The position numbers were made by a program, and so were the translations under genes. Shown piece after piece: positions 4,843 through 64,000 of a stretch of DNA of 64,000 bases; positions within the stretch are counted from its first letter, which is position 1, and every line of letters starts with the position of its first letter. The DNA lies in the NCBI GenBank assembly GCA_017504605.1, contig JAFVQW010000041.1, forward strand, positions 10,391 to 74,390, read 5' to 3'. A model generated the notes under the pieces. It worked only from the letters and a program-made list of their open reading frames with translations. It searched no databases and was not told the origin of the DNA. This DNA comes from Clostridia bacterium. Its GTDB lineage: Bacteria; Bacillota; Clostridia; Oscillospirales; CAG-272.

Positions 4843-4855
4843 GGAGGGACATAAA

Positions 4856-4966
4856 ATGAAAAAGTATGAATCTCCCGAAATCAAAATCACGAGCGTAGAA
4901 GCATCGGATATTATTACCGTGTCCTACGGTAGTACCCCCTGGCTTAACGCAGGATTTGAGTGGTAA
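4856..4966 (+). CDS. Conserved 36-aa peptide MKKYESPEIKITSVEASDIITVSYGSTPWLNAGFEW
   Basis: AAGGAGGGA lies 6 nt upstream of the ATG, and the gene starts 13 nt after the P1 stop. A second copy at 59409..59519 is 29/36 identical, with 9 codons differing only synonymously. Confidence 0.7.
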   Translation: MKKYESPEIKITSVEASDIITVSYGSTPWLNAGFEW

Positions 4967-4973
4967 AAGCCAC

Positions 4974-5206
4974 GTTCCATATCCCCCTCGCCCTCGGGCG
5001 AGGGGATATGGAGTTATATTGCTCGCGCGGCGAGCAGTTATATTGTTGCTTCGCAACAGTTATATTCGCCTTGCGGCGAGTTAGATTAAAGTGAAAGTTG
5101 AAAACCGAGAGTTGAAGGTGACCGTATACATTTTCAATTTTCCGTTTTCCATTTTCAATTAAAATAGCGCGCACAGCGCGCATTCTATACACCCCGGGAG
5201 GTAATT
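4974..5206 (+). repeat. Conserved intergenic cassette, copy 1 (strong hairpin + AGTTATATT/hairpin array + AGTTGAA/TTCAATT arms + 5' leader of P2)
   Basis: Near-identical to 8389..8625 and related to 59524..59713. Contains a 15-bp stem at 4977..5011 (ccatatccccctcgcc/ggcgaggggatatgg). AGTTATATT occurs at 5012, 5036 and 5058 (AGTTAGATT at 5079), separated by mini-hairpins. A gcgcgc-aca-gcgcgc hairpin precedes the ribosome-binding site GGGAGG. Confidence 0.85.
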
Positions 5207-8388: not shown

Positions 8389-8625
8389 GTTCCATATCCC
8401 CTCGCCCTCGGGCGAGGGGGATATGGAGTATATTGCTCGCGCGGCGAGCAGTTATATTGTCGCTTCGCAACAGTTATATTCGCCTTGCGGCGAGTTAGAT
8501 TAAAGTGAAAGTTGAAAACCGAGAGTTGAAAGCTGTGCCGTTTTTTGCACTTTCAATTTTCCATTTTCCATTTTCAATTAAAATAGCGCGCACAGCGCGC
8601 ATTCTATACACCCCGGGAGGTAATT
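8389..8625 (+). repeat. Conserved intergenic cassette, copy 2 (upstream of P3)
   Basis: Same hairpin (8392..8426), same three AGTTATATT/hairpin units and same leader as copy 1. Identity continues through the first 21 nt of the downstream CDS (atgaaaaaaatgagaaggctt). Confidence 0.85.
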
Positions 8626-11600: not shown

Positions 11601-11705
11601 TGCGATATGCTCGCGGCGACTCTTCGCCTCGGCAAGAGCGCGAGAAGGTACGAGGGCGCGGGACTGCCCGATACGCCGAGTATCGAGCCCGACTTCGAGT
11701 TCTAA
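8626..11705 (+). pseudogene. P3: P-family member interrupted by a frameshift near 8767-8775 (or an assembly error)
   Basis: The signal-peptide ORF 8626..8841 (MKKMRRLTSFVLVLALIAAVLA...) is in frame 1. Family homology (SYVGYESEKNYRYDLADGVFDGIALG...VDLSGHKMN) continues in frame 0, which opens at 8769 after a TGA at 8766-8768 and runs to 11705. The 8982 ATG is internal. Confidence 0.7.
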
Positions 11706-43824: not shown

Positions 43825-44718
43825 TCAGAGCGCCCTTTTGTTTGTGAAGGCACGCTTCTTGTATGCCACGGGGGTCATACCCGTATAGCGCTTGAAGGTC
43901 TTTGAGAAATAGTTCGGCGTGTCGAAGGCGAGCCGCTCGGCAATCTGCTTGACGGTGTAGTCTCCCTCGCGCAGATACTGCTTTGCCGCCTCTACCTTAA
44001 GCTTTGTAAAGTAGGCCATAACCGTCTTGCCCGTGGCGCGCTTGAACTCTCGGAATATGTAAGCGCGGCTGTATCCGACCGCCGCCGAGAGCTCGTCAAC
44101 CGATAGCGTGCTCTCGATTTTTTCTCTCATAACCGCGATGCAGTCGTCCACCGCCTTCGATTGCAGCTTCTCCGTGGGAAGGAAAATACTGTTGCTCCTG
44201 CCGTTTTCCGTCATTTGGCGCATAAGGCTGATGAGAAAAAGCTCAAGATAATTTTTTATCAGCTGCTGACCGCCGAGGGTGGGGTGCTCGAGAAGGTGCA
44301 GGCCGGTGTCCTCGGGAGTGGAGAAGGGAATATCGAAGGTACGCTTCGCCTCCTCTACGATGCTGTAAATGAAGCGCACGAGGCTCTTGTCGGGCCGCAC
44401 GCGGCAGCCCTCGAAAAAGCGCATAGCCTCGGACTTACATTCAAAGGAAATTACAAAGACGTTCGGCGCGCGTCGGCCGTTGGCGCTGTGCGCGTGAAAT
44501 TCTCCGGGCTTGTGAAAGGCAACCGTGCCCTCCTCAAGCGTGTATTCCTCGTCACCAGCCGTACAGAGAATGCTCTCCTTGTCGGCGTACACCAGCTCCC
44601 AGAAATCGTGTACCTCCCCCGAGAAGCTGAAATTCTTTTCAAATTCAAAGTAGTGTATAGTGACGATTTTATTGATTACAATGAGATTTTCGAGCTTGTG
44701 TTTGAAATATTTCTTCAT
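43825..44718 (-). CDS. AraC-family transcriptional regulator, divergent from the secreted-protein operon
   Basis: N-terminal cupin-like sensor and C-terminal AraC HTH (YIFREFKRATGKTVMAYF...PNYFSKTFKRYTGMTPVAYKK). Confidence 0.85.
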   Translation of the reverse strand: MKKYFKHKLENLIVINKIVTIHYFEFEKNFSFSGEVHDFWELVYADKESILCTAGDEEYTLEEGTVAFHKPGEFHAHSANGRRAPNVFVISFECKSEAMRFFEGCRVRPDKSLVRFIYSIVEEAKRTFDIPFSTPEDTGLHLLEHPTLGGQQLIKNYLELFLISLMRQMTENGRSNSIFLPTEKLQSKAVDDCIAVMREKIESTLSVDELSAAVGYSRAYIFREFKRATGKTVMAYFTKLKVEAAKQYLREGDYTVKQIAERLAFDTPNYFSKTFKRYTGMTPVAYKKRAFTNKRAL

Positions 44719-45098: not shown

Positions 45099-48095
45099 AT
45101 GAAAAAAACGAACGGGAAGAGGATAGCACTTTTGGCGGTGACTGTGCTTATGTGTGTTGCCGCGGTCTTCACGCTTGCCACGTCTGCGGCGAGGGTGGGC
45201 AGTCTCGACGAGGCTAACCGACTTCTTGAGCAGGTGAAAAAGGTAGATATAGGAGAGGACAGCGCGGCGGCGTGCGAGGAAATGTCGAGCGCCATCTTCA
45301 ATCTTCGCTCCTACATACTTCGTATGCCTCTTGACGAGAGCGAGAGCGGCTATAACGAGTTCGCCTTCGAGTACGGCAAGGAGCAGTTCAGATATGCCGA
45401 GCTGATAATGAAGGTGTTCGACGAGGCGAAGGAGAAAACCGATGCAAGCGGCAATCCCTCCCCCGACGTTCCCGCGATGCAGAGCGCGCTTGACGACATG
45501 TTCGTGCTTCTTTCCGCCGATGATTTTATGATAGAGCGAGCGCTCGTTTATAATGAGGGTGAGGACGGAGTTTTCAGTGCGGATTACGATGCTCTTAACG
45601 AGAAATACGCCGAGGCTCCCTTCGGCTGCGTAGAGGCTATGCTTGACAATCTTCCGAACGAGGCGGATATGGCGGCGGCGCTTACCAACGCGGCGGCGTT
45701 CATCGAGCGAAACGGAATTAATATTAATGATGCAAGCAACGCGAGCATCAAGGAAAAGCTTTTTAACGCGAGACTTGCTTGCGCTAACGGGCTTCTCGAT
45801 GCGGTTGCCGACGATGCCGCGGGGATTGACGCGCAGAAGAACGGCGTGGCACTCCGTAAGCTCTCGGCGTTTATCAAGGCAAACCCTCTCGGTAAGGACG
45901 AGACCGAGGGCAGCGATTATATGACCTTTATGGCCGCGTATGAGCAGCGTATTGAGGTACAGAACGAGGCGCTTCGCGCCGCTCGCGAGGCTCTTACGTC
46001 CAAGGCGAGCTTCGGCGACCACTACGCGGGAGTGCTCTTCTTCAAGGGAACGGCCTTCGCCGTAGGAAATCAGTCTATAAACTATGCCGACGTTGACAGT
46101 GGCGCCGACGGCGACAACGAGTACTTCACCGTCAGATATGAGAACACAAAGGTGACCCATACTCATATAAGCACCGCGAGCGTTCCCGACAACAGTCGCG
46201 GCGTCGTCGTGGAGTTTGACTTTACCACCTTCGGCGATATGCCGAGCGGCTCGGTCATCATCGAGCGCGGCTCGTACACCTTCCCCGACGGACAGACCTC
46301 GGGAGTTGAGTTCTTTAAGATAAACAAGGACGGTGTCACGATAGGAAACACGACCGTCGCGGGGCTTGTACAGCCCGGCGAGTGGACGCACTTCACCCTC
46401 ATTATCGACCCCGATTGCAATGCTACGCTCTACGTCGATTACGTGCTTGTCGGCAGTGTGAGCCTTAAGGTAAGAAACTACGTCTTCGAGATTGGCGCTA
46501 TAAGAATGGGCGCACAGGCGGCCTCGGGTGAGTTCTCGATTGACAATTATATGGCGTATACCGGCACCTCGATACGCGACTGCGACTATCTCGCACAGCT
46601 CCGTGCCGATACCGAGGCCTACTTCGTACGTCTTTATCAGGGACTTAAGCACAGGCTTACCGACCACAGGGTGCTTCTCAACATCTACGACGAGTGCGCG
46701 GCGCTCGTTAACGAGTTCACTCCCGAAACCGAGGAGGGCATAGCGGCCGTCGAGGCCTTCCGCGCTATGAGCCGCTCCGACGTGCAGGATAAGGCGCTCG
46801 AGAATGCGAGAGAGAAGCTCGCGGAGAAGATAACCGCAATCAAGGATAAGCCGCGCGACAGCTCGACCTCTAAGGAGCGCATAGCGATGCTCTCCAACCT
46901 TGATAAATTCCTTGCCTACAACGAGGGCATTATGAGCGAGACCGAGAACGACGAGCTCTACGTTGCGATACAGAAAATAAAGAAGCAGCTCGACGACGAG
47001 GACTTCGTAGCCCTTCTCGTTACGGCTGTGAACGACTTCTTCGCCGAGAGCGATGCGTTCAAAATTAAAGCAAAATACGATATGGCAAAGAAATACATTA
47101 CCGAGGCCGAGAGCGACGAGGAGATTATGGCTATGCGCCGTCTCTCGGGCTTTGCGAGCTTCTCGGTTGCGTACGAGCGCTTTAAGACCGAGGGTCCTAC
47201 CCACTACGGCGACCTCGTCAGCATTGACAACACCGAGATTTTCGTGTCTATGATGAAATACGTTGCGTCGCTTATTTCCGACCCCGATTGGAAGACCAAG
47301 CATTACGACGAGATTGACAAGTACATAATGCTTGCCTCCGAGCGCGTGGAGGATGGAGCCTACGACGAGCTTTACAGCGGCTTTAGCGAGGCCTACGAGG
47401 TATATCTCGAGTACGCTCACTACTTCTTCCTCGAGCGTCAGCCGGGATATATTACCGAGCTTCGCGGCCTGCTTGATAAATGCATAGCCGCGGTTCACCC
47501 GGTTGAGAAGGCGGGCGTGATCGCGTACATCGGCGACTATATAGACAACACCGACCTTGATTTTGAGAACTCCGAGATTATAGCACTCGTTGACGAGTAC
47601 GAGGAGCTTCTCGCGACCCTTGACGGTGCCGACGGCGCGTACGAGGAGCTTCGCACGGAGTATACCGAGAAATTCATTGAAGCCGTGGCGCTTATTGCCG
47701 AGGCGGAGGGATACGCCGCTCGCCGAGCGCTCGCGGACGAGGCGCGTGTATATTATACGCACATTAACAGAACGGGCGACGGGGTCTCGGCCGCAGAGGC
47801 AGAGTACCTTGAGATTGAGGCCGCTCTTGGCGCGGTGGAGGCTGTTGCAAAGAGATTTATCTCGGAGTATGCGCTTTTAGCCTCTGCACGTACTAACGAG
47901 GAGCGCTTCGCCGCACTCGTTACCCTCTCGGCTCTTTACGCCGAGGGAATAGAGACCGAGGTGGCGGGTGCCGCCGCGGCAATTGACGGATACAATTCCG
48001 CAATCGACGATATGAACGAATTTATAAACAAGCATAACGGCGAGCTTGATGAGCTGCTTCGCGCATCGCTTGCAGCGCTCGTCAAGGCTAAATAA
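45099..48095 (+). CDS. 998-aa secreted, mostly alpha-helical protein with a central LamG/concanavalin-like insert; function unknown
   Basis: Ribosome-binding site ggagg and signal peptide MKKTNGKRIALLAVTVLMCVAAVFTLATSA. Flanks are rich in A, E and L. The central segment YFTVRYENTKV...GEWTHFTLIIDPD...FSIDNYMAYTG looks LamG-like. Confidence 0.8.
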   Translation: MKKTNGKRIALLAVTVLMCVAAVFTLATSAARVGSLDEANRLLEQVKKVDIGEDSAAACEEMSSAIFNLRSYILRMPLDESESGYNEFAFEYGKEQFRYAELIMKVFDEAKEKTDASGNPSPDVPAMQSALDDMFVLLSADDFMIERALVYNEGEDGVFSADYDALNEKYAEAPFGCVEAMLDNLPNEADMAAALTNAAAFIERNGININDASNASIKEKLFNARLACANGLLDAVADDAAGIDAQKNGVALRKLSAFIKANPLGKDETEGSDYMTFMAAYEQRIEVQNEALRAAREALTSKASFGDHYAGVLFFKGTAFAVGNQSINYADVDSGADGDNEYFTVRYENTKVTHTHISTASVPDNSRGVVVEFDFTTFGDMPSGSVIIERGSYTFPDGQTSGVEFFKINKDGVTIGNTTVAGLVQPGEWTHFTLIIDPDCNATLYVDYVLVGSVSLKVRNYVFEIGAIRMGAQAASGEFSIDNYMAYTGTSIRDCDYLAQLRADTEAYFVRLYQGLKHRLTDHRVLLNIYDECAALVNEFTPETEEGIAAVEAFRAMSRSDVQDKALENAREKLAEKITAIKDKPRDSSTSKERIAMLSNLDKFLAYNEGIMSETENDELYVAIQKIKKQLDDEDFVALLVTAVNDFFAESDAFKIKAKYDMAKKYITEAESDEEIMAMRRLSGFASFSVAYERFKTEGPTHYGDLVSIDNTEIFVSMMKYVASLISDPDWKTKHYDEIDKYIMLASERVEDGAYDELYSGFSEAYEVYLEYAHYFFLERQPGYITELRGLLDKCIAAVHPVEKAGVIAYIGDYIDNTDLDFENSEIIALVDEYEELLATLDGADGAYEELRTEYTEKFIEAVALIAEAEGYAARRALADEARVYYTHINRTGDGVSAAEAEYLEIEAALGAVEAVAKRFISEYALLASARTNEERFAALVTLSALYAEGIETEVAGAAAAIDGYNSAIDDMNEFINKHNGELDELLRASLAALVKAK

Positions 48096-48113
48096 TAAGA
48101 AAGGAGAGAAAAA

Positions 48114-51100
48114 ATGAAAATCAGAAAAACGAGCAGCAGAATACTGTCCTTTTTACTTCTCCTTTCTATCATAGCATCTCTGTTTTCGGTTTTTGCCTAT
48201 GCCGCGACTGACGAGAGTGTCGGTACAGCCGAGAGTGCGGAGGGAGCAGGACTCAGCGTAGTCTATAACAGAGGCTTCGCCGAGGGTTGGGATTACACCA
48301 ACGGACTTACCCCTTATATCGAGGGTGACGTTTCCTACGGTATAGAATACGTGAAGATGAGTGCCTCGAGGTACGAATACTATCTCAACGTTGAGGTAAA
48401 CGGAGAGAGCGAGGGCTACCTTGAGATTGATGCGGGGGATAATCTCCCCGCCTCGGGCAAGCAGTTCCTTACCTTCGATGCCCGCGCCGAGGAGGATGCG
48501 GATATTGTCGGAGCCGTAATTGCTATGACGGCGGGTGAGGGCTCGGCCTCGGAGATGATGCATCTTCTGTCCTACGTCGACGGCGAGATTTACTCGCTCG
48601 GAAGGAAGGTAGGAGAGGCTGACGGCAGCTGGCAGCACTTCTTATTTGAAATTGATTACGACTACGAGGGCGAGAGCGAGAGAGAATTTCTCGTAACCCT
48701 CTATCTTGACGGCGAGGCCTTCACGAGCGTACAGAGCGCGGGCAAGGGCGGCTTCGGCATCGGCAGCGTGCTTATCGGCGCAGGCGCCGACGAGGACCGC
48801 ACGGGCGGCTCCTATCAGCTCGATACGGTTGCGCTCTACCACGGAGTAGACGCCCCGACCGATATTCCGAACGGAAACTTCGGCACGGCGGTAGACAGAA
48901 CTCTCGTGCGCAACTTTACCATTCTCGGCCTCGGTGAGAGGACCGACGACCCGAACGTGCTCTCGGGCACTCCCGCGCTCGACCGTATCAGCACCTCGAG
49001 CGTCAGCGTGCTTTACAACCGCCACTATGGCGAGGGCTGGGATTGGAGCAACGGCTTCAACAGCCTCAGCACGAGCAAGCTCGCGAGCAATCTCGCCGAG
49101 CTTCGCAGCGATTACAGCTTTATAGTCAACAAGAGCGAGAACTTCCTCAACCATTATCTTGCGATTGAGAAGAAGAACGACACGCTCGGCTACGTATATC
49201 TCGCACCCGAGTCAAACGACAACTCGCCGCTTATAGCGAGCACCTCGGGTAAGGTGTTCATCGAGTTTGATATGAAGACCTCGGATAACAACGGCACGAT
49301 GCTTCTCACTCTTATAACCGACCCGAAGTCAGAGGGTGACACGCTCGTCTACACCGATAACGGAGAGCTCTATCTGCTCGGCCGGAAGGTTGGTACCGTC
49401 GGCGGCGAGTGGCTCCGCATTTCGATAATGCTCGATTTTGCGGGCATATACCGCGACGGCTCCTACAGTGCCGAGGCGCATTACGGCTCCGAGGGCGGGG
49501 TCGTGTACTCCTCCTATACCGCTACGACCCCGACCGTTACGAATTTGAGATTCGGCACGGCGGATAAGAAGGCCGGCAACACGGGCGACTGGTTCGGCAT
49601 CGATAACCTCGCGGTTTATTGGGGTGCCTCTACCTTCGTCAATCTCCCGAGTGACGAGCTCGGTGAGCTCGTTAATACGAGACTTGAAAAGGATTTTGCA
49701 CTCTCCGTCGAGGGCGAGTCGCTTACGGTGAACGAGATTTACAATGCCTCGCTTACTATGAAGGTCGGCTCGAGCTTCGCATATCTTCTCGGTAAGCAGG
49801 TGAAAATCTACGAGACCGAGAGCGGCGAGCGCTACGGTGCACCCGTTAAGGTTGACGGCAAGGTTCTCCTGCCGCTTCAGTCTATTATCGACTTTACGGG
49901 AGCAACGCTCATTCCTCACGATGACTTCAAGAGCTTCGAGGTCTTCCTCGGCTCGACACTCTCGTACCTCACGCTCGGCTCGACCGATGCTATAATCGGC
50001 GGTAAGCGTGTCAGCCTCGCGGCGGCTCCCGCGGTGGTTGAGGCGGGCGAGGGAATGTCCTACGTGGTTATCGGAATGGACGACCTTGAGGCTATTTTCC
50101 CCGGCTTCTACGTGGTTTGGGACGATTGCGGACTTCTCACGGTTACCGAGTATAAGAACTTTATAAACAGAAATATGAGCGGCGCGTTCGATACTATGGT
50201 ATCGATTATGCGTAAATTCCTCTACGATTACGTGGACGGGGATACCGTTTACGAGATGGCGAAGGAGCACACGAACAACTTCGACCACCCCTACCTGTTT
50301 GCTAATCAGGATAAGTTCGACGAGCTTCGGAGAGTATATTACGCCGCACCCGGCGACGAGGACTTCAACGCCGAGCTCGCGGGCTATATGCAGGTTCGCG
50401 TTGACCGTGCCGACGAGCGCCTCGGAGCGCTTGCCGAGCTTGACGAGACGGGCAGATACCTCGGTGTTAAGCCCGAGAAGATTCCCGTGAACACCAACTA
50501 CGTCACCGAGCCCGGCAACAACGGCTACGACGTCGGCGGACGACTTAATCTTATTTACCGTGACGATTATACCGGCGCTCTTGAGGATATTGCCTTCGCA
50601 TACCAGGTTACGGGCAATACCGTCTACGCCGAGTTCCTTCTCGACTTCATCGGCTACTTCTGCGACGACGAGCTCTGGCCTCACTGGGGTCCCTCTCACT
50701 TCCTTAACGTCGCGGAGAGCGTTATACACATGGCGATAGCCTACGACTGGTGCTACGACGCGTGGATGGAAATAAGCCCCGAGCAGACTATGCACATAAG
50801 AGCGAAGCTCTATGAGAAGGGCGGCTATCACGGCTACAACTCGATGCTTACGACCGTTTGCCCGAAGGAATTTATATCGGCTAAGGGCTACCGCTGCTAC
50901 AACTACCACATAACGACTAACAACTGGAACACGGTATGCTCGAACGGTATGGTGGTCACGGCGCTCGCGCTCTTTGACATTGACACCAACGCCGATATGG
51001 ATAAAATCAATAACAACGAGGCCCTCTCGCAGATGAAGGCGCTCGTTTCGGGCGATATCCGAAGCCTTGTCAACTACGCGATGCATTACTACCAGTTCGA

Positions 51101-52658
51101 CGGCTCCTACTCCGAGTCGGTCGGATATTGGGATGCCTCGACACAGGGCTATCACCAGATGACCGCGGTGCTTGAGTCGGTTACCGGCTCCACCTTCGGC
51201 TACCTCGATACCTGGGGTATGGATAGGACCTACTATTTCGCTCTCTCCTTTGAGTCGAGCGACCACTACACCTGGCCCTTCCACGACGACTCTGCGAGCG
51301 AGCTGTCTACTCCGCTTATGATGTATTATTCCACGGCCTCGGGCGACAGCGTTCTCGGTCAGATAAGGAAGATACAGCTGGCACAGGGTAAGACTCCGAC
51401 GATATGGGATGCGATTTACTATCAGGATGCCGATGCAGACGGAGATATTGAGCTTCCCCTTACCTTCACCGCATCGAAGATAGAGGCCTTCGTGGCCAGA
51501 ACCTCGTGGGAGAAGGGAGCGCTCTTCACGGGAATTATGGGCGGATATAACGGCGAGGGCCACGCTCATATGGACTCGGGCAACTGGGTTTACTACAACA
51601 AGGGCATTAACTGGTTTAAGGACCTTGGAAGCGACAACTACAACGTATATAACTATTGGAGCTCCTACCACGTATACAGAAGGAGCGCCGAGGGACACAA
51701 CCTCTTTATAATGAACACATCCTCCTACGAGTACGGTATGGACCTTCAGGGCACGGGCTACCTCACCGACACACTGGTTAACGAGCACGGCTCCTACGCC
51801 ATCATTGACCAGTCCGAGGTATACGGCGGCTCGAAAATGGTTAACTATGCTCGCCGCGGTATGCTTATTACCAACGACAACAACACCGTTGTTATTCAGG
51901 ACGAGGTACAGTTTAAGACCATGACCAAGTCCTATTGGATAGCACACGTGAACGTTGCGCGAAGCAACGTGATGGGCTTCGTTGAAAAGATTGAGGTTTC
52001 AGCGGATAAGAAGGTGGCCTATCTCCACGGTGTCAACCGGAGCAAGGGCGAGAGATACACCCTGCGCGTAACGCTTATCACGGCGGTTCTCGGTGCGGGC
52101 TTCGAGGTCTGGGATGCGGGTATGAGTGACTTTGCGCTTCCCGGCACCTACCGCCCCGGCTACTCCGAGTCTATGGGCGGAGAGCCTCAGACGAGTAACG
52201 TCGGTGCACAGAGGCTCGTCGTAGAAATAAAGGACAGAACCGAGGTTAAGATAGCCGTGGCTATCGAGCTTGTAGACAGAGAAAACGAGCTTGAGACCGG
52301 CTACAAGATGACCGATATGAAGAAGTGGGCGCCCGCGGCCGACACTCGCGGATATATAGCAGATGCGGTCGAGACCCGCTCCTCTCACGTAAACGGCGTT
52401 TATACCAACGTATCTCAGCTCCAGGCCTTTGAACCGAGCACTCTCCTCGGCGTGAATATGGAGGAGGCCTACAAGAAAATGGCTAATATAGGTTACATAG
52501 TAAGTAAGAACCAGAATATAGTCAACGTTGATTATTACAAGGAGCTCCTTGTAACCTACTACGACTGCCGTGCGACATACGACGGCTTCATTAAGAATGC
52601 CAATGCGGCGGCGGCCACCGCACGCGAGCTGGTCGGTGAGCTCTTCGGCTCCCGATGA
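48114..52658 (+). CDS. 1514-aa secreted heparinase II/III-like polysaccharide lyase with two LamG-like modules and a copper-amine-oxidase-N-like domain
   Basis: Signal peptide ...SLFSVFAYA. Two LamG-like modules (GSWQHFLFEIDYD..LDTVALYHG; GEWLRISIMLDF..GIDNLAVYWG) and a VKVDGKVLLPLQSIIDFTGA stalk. DHPYLFANQDKFDELRR is toroid-like. GEGHAHMDSGNWVYYNKGINWFKDLG and AEGHNLFIMN are heparinase II/III C-domain-like. Confidence 0.8.
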   Translation: MKIRKTSSRILSFLLLLSIIASLFSVFAYAATDESVGTAESAEGAGLSVVYNRGFAEGWDYTNGLTPYIEGDVSYGIEYVKMSASRYEYYLNVEVNGESEGYLEIDAGDNLPASGKQFLTFDARAEEDADIVGAVIAMTAGEGSASEMMHLLSYVDGEIYSLGRKVGEADGSWQHFLFEIDYDYEGESEREFLVTLYLDGEAFTSVQSAGKGGFGIGSVLIGAGADEDRTGGSYQLDTVALYHGVDAPTDIPNGNFGTAVDRTLVRNFTILGLGERTDDPNVLSGTPALDRISTSSVSVLYNRHYGEGWDWSNGFNSLSTSKLASNLAELRSDYSFIVNKSENFLNHYLAIEKKNDTLGYVYLAPESNDNSPLIASTSGKVFIEFDMKTSDNNGTMLLTLITDPKSEGDTLVYTDNGELYLLGRKVGTVGGEWLRISIMLDFAGIYRDGSYSAEAHYGSEGGVVYSSYTATTPTVTNLRFGTADKKAGNTGDWFGIDNLAVYWGASTFVNLPSDELGELVNTRLEKDFALSVEGESLTVNEIYNASLTMKVGSSFAYLLGKQVKIYETESGERYGAPVKVDGKVLLPLQSIIDFTGATLIPHDDFKSFEVFLGSTLSYLTLGSTDAIIGGKRVSLAAAPAVVEAGEGMSYVVIGMDDLEAIFPGFYVVWDDCGLLTVTEYKNFINRNMSGAFDTMVSIMRKFLYDYVDGDTVYEMAKEHTNNFDHPYLFANQDKFDELRRVYYAAPGDEDFNAELAGYMQVRVDRADERLGALAELDETGRYLGVKPEKIPVNTNYVTEPGNNGYDVGGRLNLIYRDDYTGALEDIAFAYQVTGNTVYAEFLLDFIGYFCDDELWPHWGPSHFLNVAESVIHMAIAYDWCYDAWMEISPEQTMHIRAKLYEKGGYHGYNSMLTTVCPKEFISAKGYRCYNYHITTNNWNTVCSNGMVVTALALFDIDTNADMDKINNNEALSQMKALVSGDIRSLVNYAMHYYQFDGSYSESVGYWDASTQGYHQMTAVLESVTGSTFGYLDTWGMDRTYYFALSFESSDHYTWPFHDDSASELSTPLMMYYSTASGDSVLGQIRKIQLAQGKTPTIWDAIYYQDADADGDIELPLTFTASKIEAFVARTSWEKGALFTGIMGGYNGEGHAHMDSGNWVYYNKGINWFKDLGSDNYNVYNYWSSYHVYRRSAEGHNLFIMNTSSYEYGMDLQGTGYLTDTLVNEHGSYAIIDQSEVYGGSKMVNYARRGMLITNDNNTVVIQDEVQFKTMTKSYWIAHVNVARSNVMGFVEKIEVSADKKVAYLHGVNRSKGERYTLRVTLITAVLGAGFEVWDAGMSDFALPGTYRPGYSESMGGEPQTSNVGAQRLVVEIKDRTEVKIAVAIELVDRENELETGYKMTDMKKWAPAADTRGYIADAVETRSSHVNGVYTNVSQLQAFEPSTLLGVNMEEAYKKMANIGYIVSKNQNIVNVDYYKELLVTYYDCRATYDGFIKNANAAAATARELVGELFGSR

Positions 52659-55788: not shown

Positions 55789-56170
55789 CCTCCACTGTTC
55801 TAAATCCAAGCCGACGAAGGAGGCTTGGTATGGCATCACGCGTTAGCGTGTATGGAATCCCGACTTCGTCGGGTATGGCATCAGCCGAGGGGCTGTATTT
55901 CGTCGGCTTGATTCCATGCCGTCTGAGACGTATTCCATACCGCCACAAGTGGCGGATTCCATCCACGGCTTCGCCGTGATTTGAAGAAAACTAAAGCTTA
56001 TAACCTCCACTGTTCTAAATCCAAGCCGACGAAGGAGGCTTGGTATGGCATCACGCGTTAGCGTGTATGGAATCCCGACTTCGTCGGGTATGGCATCAGC
56101 CGAGGGGCTGTATTTCGTCGGCTTGATTCCAAGCCGTCTGAGACGGATTCCATACCGCCATGGGCGGACT
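55789..56170. repeat. Two tandem copies of the type A hairpin-punctuated repeat element
   Basis: Copy A is about 55789-55987 and copy B about 56004-56170. Both start cctccactgttctaaatccaagccgacgaaggaggcttggtatggcatc and carry 3 forward GTATGGMATC units and 2-3 reverse GATTCCATAC-like units. They are homologous to 376..647. Confidence 0.85.
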
Positions 56171-56272: not shown

Positions 56273-59200
56273 ATGAAAAAAATCAGCAAAATCCTTGCCG
56301 TGCTTCTGATGCTCTGTCTCGTTCTTACGGGAATCGTGCTTACCGTGAGTGCAGATGAGCCCGCAGCAGCATCGGCACCCGCCGCTCCCGACTTTTTGCC
56401 CGAGAGCGTGACGGCAACTCCTGATGCTTCGCTTTCCGGCTACGCTTACGTAGTCTATGCGAGCGAGGCTGACTTCAACGCCGACCTCGATAACGGTGTT
56501 ATCGACGGTATGGTTGACGGCACAAGCGTTCTCACCGCGACAGGCGCGGCGACAACCGACGGCACGGAGGCAGTGCTTACTATGCCTACGACAAGCGCCT
56601 ACGTCTACCTGCTTCAGAACGTAAATACGGGAGCAACCGCCTTCACAACTAAAGGAATTACCCTTCAGATTAACTTTGGCGGAAAAACCCTTACGTTCAA
56701 CAACTCTAACAACATCCAGGGAACCTCTGCGGTGGCAGGAAAATATGCCTTCTTCAACGGTACTTTCGTTGACGGCTTTAACGGCGCCCACGGCACCTTC
56801 CGTACGGGCTACCTCATAAACATAGCGCTTCGCGACCTTAATGTGTCGAGCACTCGCACCTGGGGCAACTCGAGAACCTTCGCTCTTGAGAGTAACGCGA
56901 ACGTATATGCAGAGGACGTTACGGTAGATTACACAAAATCCACCAAGGGTTTGTTTACCATTAATACTACGGGATTCGCAAACATAACCCTTAAGAACCT
57001 TGACTACGCGGGCAAGACTGCGAGCAACGGCGCGAGAGTTATTTTTGCGATCAATACATTCTCGAGCGCAACCCTCTATGCTGACGCTGACTGTAGCTTC
57101 AAGGGCCAGCTCTTCACTTGTACCGCTTCACCTGCGGCGCCTCTCGCCGCCACCTTTGAGAACGGCGTGAAGTTTGATAACGACGCCTATAATTCGCTCT
57201 CGAGCCAGCATTTTGCCTCCTCGTTCGTCGAGGACGGCTCGACGTTCATCGAGTCGAGTGATGCCGACTTTTCTTGGATAGTTGAACAGCCCGCTGCAAC
57301 GGTTAGCTGGTACGACGAGAACGGTACTCTCCTTGGCACCACGAGCCACGGTGTCGGCGCTACTCCCTCGTTCGAGTATGCTCCCCCCGCGGACTCCGCA
57401 AGCATTGAGGGTGATAAGGTTTACCTTCTCGGTAACGGCGGCTGGTCGACCACCGATGGCGGTACGGCTACCGAGATTACCGCTATTACGAGCGGCGAGA
57501 CCGAGAGAAGCTATTACTGCGTTCTCGCTAAGGTTGAGGCTGCGGTAGCTATATTCGAGGACGATACCTGCACTAAGCTTATCAGCGCATCTAGCGAAAA
57601 GAAGCTCTCGGGCGAGGTTATCAGCACGCTCCCCGAGGGTGCATACGTTCGCGCTTACACCGACCTTGATGCTGTCGGTAATTTCGAGAGCTATCTCGGA
57701 AGCATCACCGTTGACCTCGGCGGCAACAAGCTGACGCACGCGGGCACCTATTGGGCAACTCCCGCGGCGGGCGTTACCGTAACCGTCAAGAACGGTACCA
57801 TTGACATCGCAGGCACTTATACGAAGGTTATTAACGGTGCGGCTGCCGGAACCCTTAAGTTCCATAAGATAGACATCGTATCGGCGGGCGGCCCCCAGAT
57901 TGCAAACCTCAACGCGGGCAGCTTCATAATGGAGCTCGGCTCGATTGATACCACCGGCGCTCGGTACTACAGACCCTTCTTCATTGGTCAGGGTGCTACC
58001 GAGGCGGTTACCGCATCCCTTGAGTTCTACGGTGTATATCACCACGGCGAGTGGGGTGGCGGAAGCGGCGACATTTTCGTCACGCTCCAGTCGAAGGCAG
58101 GTGCCAATAACGATATAAAGGTTATCGTTGGCGACTACGAGGGCACCTACAGCTGGATTAGAACCGGATATCTTCTTCAGTTCTCTACCGCAAATCTCGG
58201 CGCCGAGTCCAAGTATGAGTTCGTATGCGACGGCGTATATCTCTACGGCGGTAACGCTCACGTAACCGGCAAGCCCACCTGGGGCGGTCTGACCTCTGCC
58301 GATCTCGACAAGCAGAACGTAAGCTTCTACTTCGATAACTTCATCGGCACGAGACCCGACTACTTCACGCACTCCGACAGCGCGCTTCTTACCACCGCGA
58401 CGGTGAACGTAAAGAGGTTCGAGATGGTATATACCGACGGCACCGATGAAGAGACCGGCGAGCCCATTTGGGATGAAGATTCCGCGGGCGGCGCTTTCAT
58501 GCCTCCCGAAGACCTTGGCATCCTTGCTAACCTCACGCTCTACAGCGACTTCCGTCTCAACTTCTATATTCCCGTAGACGGCGACGTCGTAAGACTCGCT
58601 TACGGCGATGCTCTTCTCTTTGATAAGGCGAACGGCATCGGCACCGACGGACTTACTTCCGACGGCAAGTACTACAAGGTTTCTCTTGCAGGCATAGCTC
58701 CGAACACCGCGGCAGCGAGCGTTGAGCTTCGCGTCGGCCTCGTCGAGAGCGACGTTTTCGCAACTCGTGACGGCGCGACCGAGGAGTTGACCTATTACTA
58801 TTACCTCACCGCTAAGTACTCGGTAGTTAACTACGTATCCGACCTTCTTGCCGGCACGACCGACGAGATTCAGGTTAACGCTATGAAGGCTATCATCGCT
58901 TACGTTGTATCGGCATACGACTACTTCTTCGAGGAGAGCAGCACCGAGGATGCTAAGTACGAGCTTCTTCTCTCTCTCTACGATAGCTGTGGCGTTGAAG
59001 ACTTCATCGCAGACTTCTATGAGAGTGCGGTGGCACCTGACAACGACACCGATTTCGCAGAGGGCACCGGCGTTACCGCTGCCTTCCAGATCGGTACCGT
59101 ATCTAAGCTCTACGTAACCTTCCCCGCAGGCTCCGAGTGGACCGTAAAGGGAGCGAACGTAGATAAGTCGGGCACGGGTGGCGAGTGCGTGATTAACCTT

Positions 59201-59395
59201 CCCGCATACGCTCTTACCGACGTGCTTACCATAACCGTTGGTGAGGCGACTGCTACCTTCTCCTTCGGTGAGTATGTAGAGTTCCTTATGACCGACGACA
59301 ACCCCGACGAATATCAGGATGCCGTGCTCGTTGCAATGTACGCTTACGGCGAGACTGCAAAGGCGCTCAAGGCAACCCTGCCCGAAAATGCATAA
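56273..59395 (+). CDS. P5: 1040-aa secreted protein of the P family (mosaic of P1-like ends and a P4-like centre)
   Basis: Signal peptide MKKISKILAVLLMLCLVLTGIVLTVSA/DEP resembles that of P1. The centre (WATPAAGVTVTVKNG...IDIVSAGGPQIANLNAGSFIMELG...YEGTYSWIRTGYLLQFS) resembles P4. The C-terminus (TAAFQIGTVSKLYVTFPAGSEW...LPAYALTDVLTITVGEATATFSFGEY) resembles P1. Confidence 0.9.
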   Translation: MKKISKILAVLLMLCLVLTGIVLTVSADEPAAASAPAAPDFLPESVTATPDASLSGYAYVVYASEADFNADLDNGVIDGMVDGTSVLTATGAATTDGTEAVLTMPTTSAYVYLLQNVNTGATAFTTKGITLQINFGGKTLTFNNSNNIQGTSAVAGKYAFFNGTFVDGFNGAHGTFRTGYLINIALRDLNVSSTRTWGNSRTFALESNANVYAEDVTVDYTKSTKGLFTINTTGFANITLKNLDYAGKTASNGARVIFAINTFSSATLYADADCSFKGQLFTCTASPAAPLAATFENGVKFDNDAYNSLSSQHFASSFVEDGSTFIESSDADFSWIVEQPAATVSWYDENGTLLGTTSHGVGATPSFEYAPPADSASIEGDKVYLLGNGGWSTTDGGTATEITAITSGETERSYYCVLAKVEAAVAIFEDDTCTKLISASSEKKLSGEVISTLPEGAYVRAYTDLDAVGNFESYLGSITVDLGGNKLTHAGTYWATPAAGVTVTVKNGTIDIAGTYTKVINGAAAGTLKFHKIDIVSAGGPQIANLNAGSFIMELGSIDTTGARYYRPFFIGQGATEAVTASLEFYGVYHHGEWGGGSGDIFVTLQSKAGANNDIKVIVGDYEGTYSWIRTGYLLQFSTANLGAESKYEFVCDGVYLYGGNAHVTGKPTWGGLTSADLDKQNVSFYFDNFIGTRPDYFTHSDSALLTTATVNVKRFEMVYTDGTDEETGEPIWDEDSAGGAFMPPEDLGILANLTLYSDFRLNFYIPVDGDVVRLAYGDALLFDKANGIGTDGLTSDGKYYKVSLAGIAPNTAAASVELRVGLVESDVFATRDGATEELTYYYYLTAKYSVVNYVSDLLAGTTDEIQVNAMKAIIAYVVSAYDYFFEESSTEDAKYELLLSLYDSCGVEDFIADFYESAVAPDNDTDFAEGTGVTAAFQIGTVSKLYVTFPAGSEWTVKGANVDKSGTGGECVINLPAYALTDVLTITVGEATATFSFGEYVEFLMTDDNPDEYQDAVLVAMYAYGETAKALKATLPENA

Positions 59396-59408
59396 GGAGG
59401 GACGAAAA

Positions 59409-59519
59409 ATGAAAAAATATGAATCCCCCGAAATCGTAATTACGAACGTTAATTCCTCGGACATTATTACCGCATCCTACGGTACTACCCCTTGGCTTAA
59501 CGCGGAATTCGAATGGTAA
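59409..59519 (+). CDS. Conserved 36-aa peptide MKKYESPEIVITNVNSSDIITASYGTTPWLNAEFEW (second copy)
   Basis: AAGGAGGGA ribosome-binding site, 13 nt after the P5 stop. Same length, start and stop as 4856..4966, with a mix of synonymous and conservative differences. Confidence 0.7.
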   Translation: MKKYESPEIVITNVNSSDIITASYGTTPWLNAEFEW

Positions 59520-59523
59520 AACC

Positions 59524-59713
59524 ACGTTCCATATCCCCTCGCTCTCGGGCGAGGGGGATATGGAGTTATATTGCACCTTCGGTGCAGTTAGATTGAATTG
59601 AAGGTTGAAAGCCGAGAGTTGAAGGTGACCCTGTGCATTTTCAATTTTCCGTTTTCCATTTTCAATTAAAAAAGCGCTATATGCGCAATCTATAAAAGCC
59701 TATGGAGGTTCTT
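59524..59713 (+). repeat. Conserved intergenic cassette, copy 3 (diverged, shorter) upstream of P6
   Basis: Same big hairpin (59529..59563). Only one AGTTATATT/hairpin unit (gcacc-ttc-ggtgc). Same gttgaa...ttttcaattttccgttttccattttcaatt arms. A gcgc-tatat-gcgc hairpin replaces gcgcgc-aca-gcgcgc. Confidence 0.8.
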
Positions 59714-62700: not shown

Positions 62701-62929
62701 TGACGTCCTCACCGTGAGTGTCGGCGAGCAGAGCGGCAGCTTCAGCCTCGCGGCCTACAGAGCGGCGCTTGTCGGCGTATGGGGCGACGAGCTCCAGGGA
62801 CTTTCCGACGTGCTTCTTGCACTGGAGAGGCTCGGTGTAGCCTCGGAGACCTACGAGGCCCGTATGGGCGGCGAAATGGAAGACGTTGGCGGCGATACGC
62901 CCGTCATCGATGCACCGCTAAAGCGCTGA
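59714..62929 (+). CDS. P6: ~1071-aa secreted protein of the P family (most divergent member)
   Basis: Ribosome-binding site ggagg 5 nt before the ATG at 59714. Signal peptide MKRKMKLGAVILALSLALSSLLAVAIPSAA. Motifs: YYALYSTEDDYLFDIADGALDG, VLDLNGYNLHIT, VSWYGFDGKL...YWSLTEGG, TLDLNGYTLSL, HTPAAGLTLTV, IMNVYIPVDS. Confidence 0.9.
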   Translation: MKRKMKLGAVILALSLALSSLLAVAIPSAAVTEETPAPADSTERLEPTGALEGYYYALYSTEDDYLFDIADGALDGVGHGDYGEEETLIDKTVGKASPLIALPAARSFYILVLSKDVEITNKEVALASNRVCVLDLNGYNLHITTTTSAFTTVSVGDTRTQLTSADFTVKNGTIYNESTRAGQIFSVRMGSFLTFEDVVIDGRDGGAASFVQDFGGDITFRRCDYYAPSNASLIDVNSTPLAEYDNCVCNACQSRPNISTLLPFKNTYTFDGFNYYGDDNPQGITYVRPQSHANDDGLGKPLVDVIIKGNSSFVGQVFGIHKHGEGTRLNVQIEEGTRFDRKLTLPKLNTDKITVYVATYVDKAGNEIDEPVFGSSGLPEYPYQLGTGLCKVSWYGFDGKLVDVTELVKGAYPVYTGYVAPATQKPSMNEEGEPVIKEHDYWSLTEGGEPLPGTPLDSDTAAFYSVPRDVHPSVAIFDAEGKPTDASVTPVLSAELLGAMTDGALARIYTDAYIADAQSLVVNASVTLDLNGYTLSLITKDGETAAFHTPAAGLTLTVEDGTIYSEGAVAIAGAGDGTVRLNNVELKCFNSSAIDLSVGRVELYGGMLNVDTLKKGVSGILLGKAGGSCSLAICGTVIDVMGVGKESYAIEINSLPEEGESSVISIELGAADGVSPRLLGGSLIYVAPASESTLRASLTVDSADLASFGTLTTFADGVSPSELPVTLVGTARISRQPDGHTVLAEDGSFIVSLESDENTLAITNANLTAYKSFSVWRDLIMNVYIPVDSDIDRVTVNGTVVFDSSLAAFYETAVHDGVRCYLVRYTELKINRALDGIKTVLAVDREDVAIAAHEEFDLLDYSASVISGDYVDEAKALIHAILSYVKAAYGYFNPRLTESDTAALLRLDELLDSEIFGKIDLATEKAGESDASLSELSDYISSVQLRVAGGVYLTLNLTEAGRSAPLTVSDEDGVIFETAGVGTDSVEIELGHLSIADVLTVSVGEQSGSFSLAAYRAALVGVWGDELQGLSDVLLALERLGVASETYEARMGGEMEDVGGDTPVIDAPLKR

Positions 62930-63227: not shown

Positions 63228-63254
63228 GTTAAGCGCGATTGTCCGTTAAGGACA

Positions 63255-64000
63255 TCACGCTTCGGGAAGGCCCTCGGGAAGACCCTCGGGAAGACCCTCG
63301 GGAAGACCCTCGGGAAGACCCTCGGGAAGACCTTCGGGAAGACCCTCGGGAAGGCCCTCGGGGAAGCCCTCGGGGAGACCCTCTCCCTCAAGATACTTAG
63401 CGTATGCATCGTAGTAGGAGAGAATGACGTCGTTGATGTCGTCCTCGGTAATCTCGCCCTCCTTCTCAAAGAAGGTGTCGGCAACGATGCCCGCCATCTC
63501 CTCGATAATCTCGGGCTCGAGTTCAATCTCGTGCTCGCGAAGCGCGGTGTCAAGGTCGGTGGCAACCGTTTCCTTATACTCCTCCTTCGTCTCGCACTCC
63601 TCCTTCGTATTAAGAATGGTACCTATCTTGTCGGTAACCTCCTCGTAGACCTCGGTCGCATCTCCCTCCATGCCGACGGCATCCGAGATGAGCGCTATCG
63701 AGAGCTTGGTAAGAGAGGTAACCACGGGCTTCGTCGCGGGGTTGCCCTTAAGCTCGGCAATAACCGCGTTAATTACGTTTCCGTCGGAGTTGTACTCGGT
63801 AATAAGAAGGTCCTCGACGGCATCGGCATTACCCTCGCTGAGCGCGGCAAGCACGCCGCTGTCACCGAGAATAGCGTACACGCTTATAATAGTGTCGAGA
63901 TTGAAGCCGAGATTGTCGCCGTAGGTCTCAAGGAATATGTCGGTAAGAGATATGGCAAGGTCGTGATAGGGGTTTTCAAGTCCAACGGGAATTCTCTCGG
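63255..64000 (-). CDS. Partial (5' end outside window) acidic protein with C-terminal (L/F)PEG tandem repeats; function unknown
   Basis: The minus-strand frame is open from the window edge to the TGA at 63255-57. It ends EGEGLPEGFPEG(LPEG)x8 LPEA. No stop occurs in 63882..64000 in this frame. Confidence 0.7.
   Translation of the reverse strand, partial: ERIPVGLENPYHDLAISLTDIFLETYGDNLGFNLDTIISVYAILGDSGVLAALSEGNADAVEDLLITEYNSDGNVINAVIAELKGNPATKPVVTSLTKLSIALISDAVGMEGDATEVYEEVTDKIGTILNTKEECETKEEYKETVATDLDTALREHEIELEPEIIEEMAGIVADTFFEKEGEITEDDINDVILSYYDAYAKYLEGEGLPEGFPEGLPEGLPEGLPEGLPEGLPEGLPEGLPEGLPEA
63258..63377. repeat. 12-bp tandem repeat (about 10 units, consensus accctcgggaag)
   Basis: The units tile 63258-63377 in 12-nt register. 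Five are identical and the others differ at 1-3 positions. They encode the PEGL repeat. Confidence 0.9.

Follow-up and report, generated by a model that had tools for sequence, protein, structure and literature searches.

The precursors of RRNPP/Rgg-type signals, such as PapR of Bacillus cereus, whose active C-terminal peptide ends in ..LPFEF, and the SHP/XIP peptides of streptococci, are among the described systems closest to the small gene reported here. Aromatic C-termini are also recognized by PDZ domains, which bind aromatic-x-aromatic-COOH ligands such as the YxF tails of outer membrane proteins (OMPs) that activate DegS. The gene in question lies at 59409..59519 (+) of a 64-kb stretch of DNA, analysed as a whole and hereafter called the window, from the metagenome-assembled genome (MAG) of a 'Clostridia bacterium'. 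It encodes a peptide of 36 amino acids (aa), MKKYESPEIVITNVNSSDIITASYGTTPWLNAEFEW, ends in TAA and has a second copy at 4856..4966 (+), also of 36 aa, MKKYESPEIKITSVEASDIITVSYGSTPWLNAGFEW. Our results show that 59409-59519 is a genuine, selected, unannotated protein-coding gene and that its product belongs to a micro-protein family, so far undescribed, from uncultured Clostridia of gut and rumen.

Like RRNPP/Rgg precursors, the peptide is tens of residues long, starts with MKK and ends in an acidic and aromatic stretch (..FEW or ..FEF), which in those precursors is the seat of activity; unlike them, it has only AraC-type regulators next to it, with no cognate receptor gene adjacent, lacks a hydrophobic or signal segment and carries a hydrophilic, strongly conserved head. 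The resemblance to PDZ ligands comes from the EW subfamily of the peptides and from P3, one of six paralogous proteins of the window (P1 to P6), which end in aromatic-(D/E)-aromatic-COOH, and from one related locus (L010) that adjoins a gene for a Trypsin_2+PDZ_2 protease. In contrast to such ligands, only one neighbourhood of this kind was seen, many family tails end otherwise and the organisms are presumably monoderm. A further likeness is to the precursors of peptides that are synthesized ribosomally and modified post-translationally (RiPPs). Lasso-type leaders carry a YxxPxL motif (PMC10368454, PMC6784204), and PMC10368454 describes a Thr at the penultimate leader position. Like lasso precursors and others that depend on a RiPP recognition element (RRE), the peptide is small, combines a variable tail with a leader-like head in which Y-x-x-P-x-(I/L) and a Thr are conserved, and is predicted to be unstructured alone; unlike them, it has no cyclase, B protease or RRE near any locus and is always the distal cistron behind a giant same-strand gene. 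Finally, it resembles the entries of microbiome small-protein catalogues (Sberro et al., bioRxiv 10.1101/494179; GMSC, PMC11364881) in being a conserved gut-metagenome family, mostly of at most 50 aa, missed by standard annotation. The accessible supplementary text of the Sberro preprint (bioRxiv 10.1101/494179) contains none of the peptide motifs, and no described function or context was found.

Direct translation confirmed the coordinates, ATG, TAA and 36-codon length of both copies. Copy 1 follows P1 (742..4842, +; 1366 aa) and copy 2 follows P5 (56273..59395, +; 1040 aa, annotated in GenBank as the hypothetical protein IKA64_05515, without a Pfam domain), both of which have a signal-peptide-like N-terminus. 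Direct reading located a GGAGG Shine-Dalgarno sequence at 59396..59400 (+), directly 3′ of the P5 stop codon (TAA, 59393-59395) and 8 nucleotides (nt) before the ATG of copy 2, and its counterpart at 4843-4847 (+), likewise directly 3′ of the upstream stop and 8 nt before the ATG of copy 1. The ribosome-binding site and the 13-nt spacing from the upstream TAA are kept in both copies, a placement that indicates a separate but probably coupled initiation of the peptide. The peptide contains neither a signal peptide nor a hydrophobic segment, and there is no Cys in either window copy.

Codon-by-codon alignment of the two copies revealed 20 nt differences in 111. Twenty sense codons and the TAA stop are identical, nine codons (positions 3, 6, 11, 14, 18, 28, 32, 34, 35) differ only synonymously and seven replacements (K10V, S13N, E15N, A16S, V22A, S26T, G33E) separate the peptides, exactly the tally from which an earlier note on this DNA had argued for purifying selection. 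The differences fall on codon positions 1/2/3 in the proportion 3/5/12 (binomial p=0.013 for at least 12 of 20 at the third position). Nei-Gojobori counting gave 11 synonymous differences over 22.7 synonymous sites and 9 non-synonymous differences over 85.3 non-synonymous sites, that is, dS 0.78, dN 0.11 and omega 0.146 for the two window copies (Fisher p=2e-4), with omega at 0.31-6.4 in the five other frames of the same alignment. When 20 substitutions were placed at random with the observed transition share kept, a stop-free frame with at most 7 replacements was obtained in 0.05% of 200,000 simulations (p=5e-4). The adjoining 109 codons of P1/P5 showed an omega of 0.29 and a dS of 0.57, so the peptide is constrained at least as much as the neighbouring protein. 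Nucleotide identity by itself is uninformative here, since the 82% identity between the copies is the same as that of the flanking coding and non-coding DNA. Two close metagenomic homologues, L008 and L033, consist of exactly 36 codons and contain none of the indels or stops that the earlier note had named as evidence against selection. Among these two and the window copies, pN/pS was 0.22-0.34 (p<=0.002) in five of the six pairs, and 0.62 (p=0.37) in the sixth, W2/L008. The low omega, the simulation and the homologue pairs agree on purifying selection acting on a real coding frame.

These data bear on the possibility that the open reading frame (ORF) is non-functional, a passive passenger of gene conversion at the 3′ end of P1/P5, or that the segment acts as an RNA or regulatory element or as a leader peptide for the next gene. 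In its favour, the 82% identity of the peptide gene does not exceed that of the flanking coding and non-coding DNA, some nearby intergenic repeats are 99% identical, and the gene is uncalled both in GenBank and in the ENA assembly. Such a passenger would not, however, explain a bias towards synonymous third-position changes that is seen in this frame only, nor a frame and a head that are kept in 42 homologous peptides from other organisms. A structured RNA was rejected, as there was no Rfam match and the codon-position bias points to coding. A leader or attenuator peptide was rejected because the following gene lies on the opposite strand at many loci. A +1 frameshift or readthrough fusing the peptide to P1/P5 was also ruled out: the gap to the upstream gene varies among loci (13, 14, 16, 17 and 18 nt) and each peptide has its own Shine-Dalgarno sequence and ATG, which argues for separate initiation and not for recoding. 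We regard this group of explanations as very improbable; a non-functional ORF, already largely refuted, is effectively excluded. Long antisense open frames at 57128-59464 (-), 778 aa, and 2083-4890 (-), 935 aa, overlap P genes and both peptide copies. They were taken as shadow ORFs typical of this composition, and synonymous changes are not in excess in the reverse frames.

A profile of the two window copies was searched with HMMER against 1.84 billion (1.84e9) representative proteins at E<=1e-3. Of 44 hits, two were repeat artefacts and 42 were peptides, 41 of them 34-52 aa long and one called at 72 aa. The window copies themselves score E~1e-19 to 1e-20 against the family hidden Markov model (HMM), a figure that is partly circular because both are in the seed alignment; the search of the representative library is independent. 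Pattern scans of genomes and metagenomes, restricted to MKKYE(S/A)PE, yielded 5 and 7 usable loci, respectively. The family shares a head of 23 aa, M-K-K-Y-E-S-P-E-I-x-I-T-x-(L/F/V)-x-x-x-D-(I/V)-I-T-x-S, without a single indel in 44 sequences, in which P is invariant and Y, D, T and S are each conserved in at least 90%. The tail, 11-29 aa long, is variable, acidic (mean net charge -3.3) and rich in G, T, P and N; it contains Trp in 35 of the 44 sequences and ends with it in 17, and Cys occurs anywhere in only 4 of them. Tails of the subfamily to which the window copies belong read G(D/S/T)TP-x5-FEW-COOH or, more broadly, G(D/S/T)TP-x(3-6)-(aromatic or L)-(E/D)-W-COOH, as in STPWLNAGFEW from the window. 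Both window copies have all three elements that define the family, namely the head, a tail that is acidic and contains Trp, and placement 5-27 nt past the end of a large gene on the same strand.

The relatives come from MAGs of Clostridiales, Oscillospiraceae and Eubacteriales and from metagenome assemblies. P5 and P6 carry the consecutive GenBank locus tags IKA64_05515 and IKA64_05520, so the peptide between them is unannotated in the MAG record, and the gene is also uncalled in the ENA assembly of the same organism. The window peptides had no match in Pfam-A or NCBIfam at E<=10, and two relatives searched against Pfam/NCBIfam at E<=1 gave nothing meaningful (one chance match, E=0.059, far below cut-off). 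A profile search of the PDB returned only matches at E>0.5, viral contigs and plasmids contained no family match, and full-text literature searches with motif strings (MKKYE, DIITTS, KKYESP and similar) gave nothing relevant, no member being named in any source. Some sequences are doubtful relatives that match only over the first ~15-20 residues: L011/L013/L014 (79 aa), whose upstream protein has a C-terminus that by eye resembles those of the type IX secretion system (T9SS), and L015. In the latter, a Cys-rich peptide of 63 aa (612-803) starts with MKKYEAPEL behind an ORF (3-575) with weak SPASM-domain hits, and is probably a true radical S-adenosylmethionine (SAM) RiPP precursor sharing the N-terminal motif. 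L035 carries two convergent family peptides, 3474-3605 (+) and 3965-4096 (-), 360 nt apart; the second is divergent (MMKKIYENAKLDIIEFDTDVITASGG..., no Pro) and lies behind a gene that ends in the terminal motif of the C-terminal module described below.

At every distinct locus (~20), a long same-strand ORF ends 5-27 nt before the peptide ATG, with a single exception of 116 nt. The upstream gene, where complete, encodes 536-2797 aa (one 109-aa call in L035 may be partial), and every upstream N-terminus that was read had, by eye, a signal-peptide-like start. The peptide gene has its own Shine-Dalgarno sequence where the upstream gene stops; co-transcription with that gene and translational coupling to it are therefore probable. 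A hairpin or terminator usually lies 3′ of the peptide, and the next gene is often on the opposite strand. Glycoside hydrolases, AraC regulators and large proteins encoded on the same strand make up the neighbourhood; in the window, the central 33 kb holds housekeeping functions (Trk, rhamnose catabolism, RNase R, RimM/TrmD, UvrC, PheST and arginine biosynthesis).

P1 to P6 are paralogues with 22-39% identity in their best blastp segments. None contains a Pfam domain, and the five with an intact start (P1, P2, P4, P5 and P6) begin with a signal-peptide-like sequence. The other members are P2 (5207..8383, +), P3 (8982-11705, +; a 907-aa body), P4 (52655-55777) and P6 (59702-62929, +). Blastp and a local HMM showed that all six share a C-terminal module of ~290 aa, which lies at 58523..59392 (+) in P5 and for which the equivalent in P1 is 3970-4839. 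It ends in ...T(I/V)xVxGxxxx(F/Y)x(F/L)xxY......(V/L)xA(L/M)xxYxxxAxxY. The AlphaFold2 (AF2) model of the P5 module comprises two beta-sandwich-plus-helix units (predicted local distance difference test score, pLDDT, 78.7; predicted template modelling score, pTM, 0.71). Foldseek found nothing better than E=0.03 for this model in the PDB, and a PDB sequence search with the module gave no match. A polymorphic-toxin/immunity cassette, with an exchanged C-terminus and a small ORF, was ruled out, as the module shows conservation instead of polymorphism and the head of the peptide does not vary.

The earlier note had observed that the peptide follows only the two paralogues with the P1-type C-terminus, and had proposed a functional pairing with that domain. 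The family HMM, run on the six-frame translation of the window, matched the two copies only, which confirms that the peptide is absent after P2, P3, P4 and P6. That type of C-terminus is not confined to these two paralogues, however: P2 ends in ...LPAYLLAETLEITVGDKSAIFSFGEYADALMNDGTENASEDAVLRAMYAYGRAAKALRAAKA, clearly of the P1/P5 type, and is followed 7 nt later by the same hairpin as P1 and P5 without a peptide gene, an internal counter-example, and P4, whose C-terminus is similar to that type, has no peptide either. Moreover, a block at 59043..59573 (+), which contains the last ~118 codons of P5, the Shine-Dalgarno sequence, the peptide and the first hairpin, is 82% identical in nucleotides to 4488-5022, against ~36% identity of P1 and P5 overall. 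Both peptide copies and the P1/P5 C-terminus thus descend from one duplication or gene conversion and do not represent two independent associations. Because such a single event explains their co-occurrence, the pairing argument within the window is not independent; support for a pairing comes from other genomes.

With E from 1e-111 to 3e-6, the local HMM detected the module at the C-terminus of the protein upstream of the peptide in the window (P1, P5) and in L016, L022, L025, L029, L033, L002, L038, L040 and L041; only its terminal motif is present in L008 and in the second L035 gene. The module precedes the peptide at about 13 of the ~20 distinct loci. In a forward test, P0002 was retrieved with full-length P5 and P0060 with the module profile, neither by way of the peptide, and both then proved to have a family peptide 12-16 nt past the stop. 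The L038 peptide reads MKRYEIPEIEITEIDYSDVITTSPGTSGPVVDEDAGSWGVGIGL, and L040 reads MMKKYESPE... up to the contig end. Protein homologue searches with P5, the module profile and P6 returned the query itself only, or one or two matches. The class of tail also follows the class of upstream protein: GDTP..EW tails stand behind P-like proteins of ~1000 aa, and SxG..P..(S/G)W.(I/V)G tails behind Big_5 proteins of 2400-2800 aa and the partial P0060 ORF. The peptide does not always trail a P1-type C-terminus. Loci without the module have upstream proteins with BspA-LRR (L001), AXE1 esterase (L003) or Laminin_G_3 (L004) assignments, a 536-aa protein without assignment (L032), or, 116 nt upstream in L010, an HtrA-like protease (Trypsin_2+PDZ_2). 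The peptide thus occurs independently of P-family genes in some genomes, which the earlier note had regarded as evidence against pairing, but always behind a large same-strand gene. Gene arrangement across genomes thereby supports a broader form of the peptide-module pairing than the one proposed from the window, and the peptide and its large upstream neighbour probably function jointly.

The reading that we favour, tentatively and at somewhat less than an even chance, is that the peptide is a translationally coupled partner of the ~290-aa C-terminal module of the upstream protein and consists of a handling head and a functional tail. The peptide would be dedicated to this module and might bind it physically. 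Because all members share the head, whereas the tail changes along with the upstream protein, the head is most simply a common handling element; as such, it may serve the whole family in docking, as a leader or in export, and the tail may be the functional part that works together with the module. The paralogues of the window suggest how this could operate. P3 carries, directly past the module, a tail at 11667..11702 (+) (PDTPSIEPDFEF-stop, within an end that reads ...GAGLPDTPSIEPDFEF-stop) which exactly matches the pattern (D/S)TP-x5-FE(F/W)-COOH found in the peptide tail. P6 carries in the same position a GDTP-x5 tail at 62888..62926 (+) (GGDTPVIDAPLKR-stop, within ...VGGDTPVIDAPLKR-stop), with a weaker resemblance than P3. 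Among 5269 open frames of the window and the related loci, the strict tail pattern occurs in family peptides and P3 only; P6 and three junk ORFs are the additional hits of the looser pattern G(D/S)TP-x(3-12)-end. Of the six module proteins of this one genome, two (P3, P6) have the tail in cis, two (P1, P5) have it on a separate peptide and two (P2, P4) have none. This three-way split is the strongest hint that the module may be the setting in which the tail acts. What P3 and P6 have in cis would be supplied to P1 and P5 in trans, and P3 and P6 could do without a head, since their tail would leave the cell with the protein that bears it.

Several observations weigh against this proposal. The peptide has no signal peptide or hydrophobic segment and its proposed partners look like Sec substrates; as complexes cannot pass Sec, one has to assume either a separate exporter or a role inside the cell, and no gene for an exporter was found near the peptide. 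P2 and P4 have the module without peptide or tail, and in L001, L003, L004, L032 and L010 the protein ahead of the peptide lacks it; the module is thus neither sufficient nor necessary. The match between tail and upstream class could also result from linkage by common descent, without any interaction. The fused-tail case consists of 12-13 residues, seen in two paralogues of a single genome, one of which, P3, may be a pseudogene with a frameshift. The AF2 model of the peptide monomer has no regular structure, and hhalign of the peptide family against the module, which aligned head residues 7-27 to the module beta-hairpin CVIELPAYALTDVLTITVGGET, was not significant (E=0.083). With regard to P3, a 71-aa ORF with a signal-peptide-like start (8626-8841) lies in another frame than the 907-aa body (8982-11705), an apparent frameshift that marks either a pseudogene or an assembly error.

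The fixed head and variable tail also recall a leader and a core. The main rival explanation, which we hold to be possible although doubtful, is that the peptide is the precursor of a RiPP or of a quorum-sensing pheromone, in which the 23-aa head would be the leader for a maturase, RRE or exporter encoded elsewhere, the Trp-containing tail would be the core, and the synteny would reflect only co-expression. Recurrent (D/N)G.W motifs in the family tails bring to mind the Trp-crosslinked RiPPs of streptococci. The unstructured monomer model would also fit a peptide that folds on binding, and the Cys-rich 63-aa L015 peptide, with its MKKYEAPEL start, lies behind an ORF with weak SPASM-domain hits. 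The conserved head of fixed length places Y4-x-x-P7-x-I9 at the YxxPxL spacing of lasso-type leaders (PMC10368454, PMC6784204), and its near-invariant T21 may correspond to the penultimate-Thr signal described in PMC10368454. If the core is taken to begin at S23, however, both window copies lack the acidic residue required at core position 7-9 for a lasso ring (they have E13, and E11/E13, instead, by direct reading), and only some relatives have one. No lasso cyclase (Asn-synthetase-like) or B protease/RRE gene was found in the window or in the flanks of related loci. More generally, no radical-SAM, RRE/PqqD, YcaO, Lan, lasso-cyclase, C39-ABC or Rgg/RRNPP gene occurs within ±6-8 kb at ~20 loci, and none of these maturase, exporter and regulator classes is present across the window, which holds both copies. 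Cys, which sactipeptides and ranthipeptides made by radical SAM/SPASM enzymes would require, is nearly absent from the family and missing from the window peptides; these have no radical-SAM gene nearby, and a SPASM-like neighbour occurs only at the doubtful L015. A GG/GA cleavage site is absent too: the residue before the partly conserved G25 varies (Y, I, R, A..), and the neighbourhood holds no ABC-C39 gene. Curated RiPP families gave no match to the peptide. A RiPP precursor would leave without explanation the strict placement 5-27 nt behind a large same-strand gene and the tails fused to P3 and P6.

The same tight placement could instead serve protein synthesis. In this explanation, which we consider unlikely, the peptide would be a chaperone or export-competence factor that acts in the cytoplasm and is translationally coupled: the ribosome that has just completed the giant protein would go on to make it, and it would stay in the cell, where it would bind the C-terminal module, the last part to be made, or pass it to the secretion machinery through its acidic aromatic tail. 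The absence of an export signal, the Shine-Dalgarno sequence adjoining the upstream stop and the size of the partners (536-2797 aa where complete, with signal-peptide-like N-termini) are consistent with such a factor, and the tail resembles the C-terminus of the single-stranded DNA-binding protein SSB, an acidic protein-docking tail with an aromatic end. On the other hand, the tails of P3 and P6 are fused to exported proteins, which suggests that the tail is compatible with export or acts after it; P2 and P4 manage without the peptide, and no precedent was identified.

A further reading, which seems improbable to us at present, is a split sorting or partner system of monoderm gut bacteria, in which a leader-bearing micro-protein would supply a GDTP-x5-FEW-COOH tail in trans, so that giant extracellular proteins would have a two-part C-terminal signal with a head for non-Sec export. 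Paralogues would hold the same acidic Trp/Phe-terminated tail in cis on the two-beta-sandwich module. The tail might then serve as a tag for anchoring or sorting, or, as a PDZ/HtrA-type ligand, govern the processing or surface retention of polysaccharide-degrading proteins.

The DNA around the P genes contains further repeated elements. A strong hairpin of 16 bp without a T-run lies at 59528..59564 (+), 9 nt past the stop of copy 2, with a mini-hairpin at 59570-59588; copy 1 is followed by the equivalent hairpin at 4975-5013, and the stop of P2 directly by one at 8391-8427. They belong to arrays (4975-5081, 8391-8495 and 59528-59588) in which one to three mini-hairpins, each with AGTTATATT in front of it, come after a 16-17-bp hairpin (TTCCATATCCCC...GGGGATATGGA); the arrays lack T-runs, have folding z-scores of -4.2 to -7.6 and gave no Rfam match. 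The downstream cassette had been described as more diverged than the peptide. A 45-nt indel indeed removes two mini-hairpins, but the first hairpin is conserved and the rest is ~82% identical, like the peptide. Segments 5015-5116 and 8429-8530 are 99% identical, with flanking genes far more diverged, and the arrays may be elements that stabilise mRNA or resemble repetitive extragenic palindromes (REP), homogenised by conversion. A non-coding region of ~165 nt (...GAGAGTTGAAGGTGACC...ATTTTCAATTTTCCGTTTTCCATTTTCAATTAAAA), 78-82% identical, precedes P2, P3 and P6 (5058-5222, 8472-8641 and 59564-59730). Other repeats precede P1 and P5 (370-645 and 55800-56160) and include a 157-nt tandem duplication with 99% identity (55789-55945 / 56004-56160). 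The repeats preceding P genes are probably a shared promoter or 5′ untranslated region. Elsewhere, a 12-nt tandem repeat, TCGGGAAGACCC, present in ~13 copies at 63238-63405 within the minus-strand ORF 63255-63881 (208 aa), encodes a C-terminal (GLPE)n run of about ten copies.

Upstream of P4, the genes for Q1 (998 aa, weak Laminin_G_3 hit) and Q2 (1514 aa, weak Hepar_II_III_C and Cu_amine_oxidN1 hits) occupy window positions 45099-52658, and in L016 (1-7987) the P-like gene and its peptide likewise stand behind a gene for a 1765-aa protein that weakly matches Hepar_II_III_C, an arrangement that suggests a conserved polysaccharide-lyase-type locus. AraC-family regulators stand divergently upstream of giant-protein operons at three independent loci: window 43825-44718 (-), L025 1-470 (-) and L041 1021-1752 (-).

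All in all, the absence of this gene from both the GenBank MAG annotation and the ENA gene call illustrates that small proteins are systematically missed. The partner and the RiPP/pheromone outcomes are both directly testable. A RiPP or pheromone precursor would represent a new leader class, and a split system, if true, would be previously unrecognised. The synteny is unusually strict, and the loci resemble polysaccharide-utilisation loci of uncultured gut and rumen Clostridia. No anchoring domain can be recognised in their giant upstream proteins, and the peptide, should it prove to be the partner of these proteins, could account for their handling or retention.

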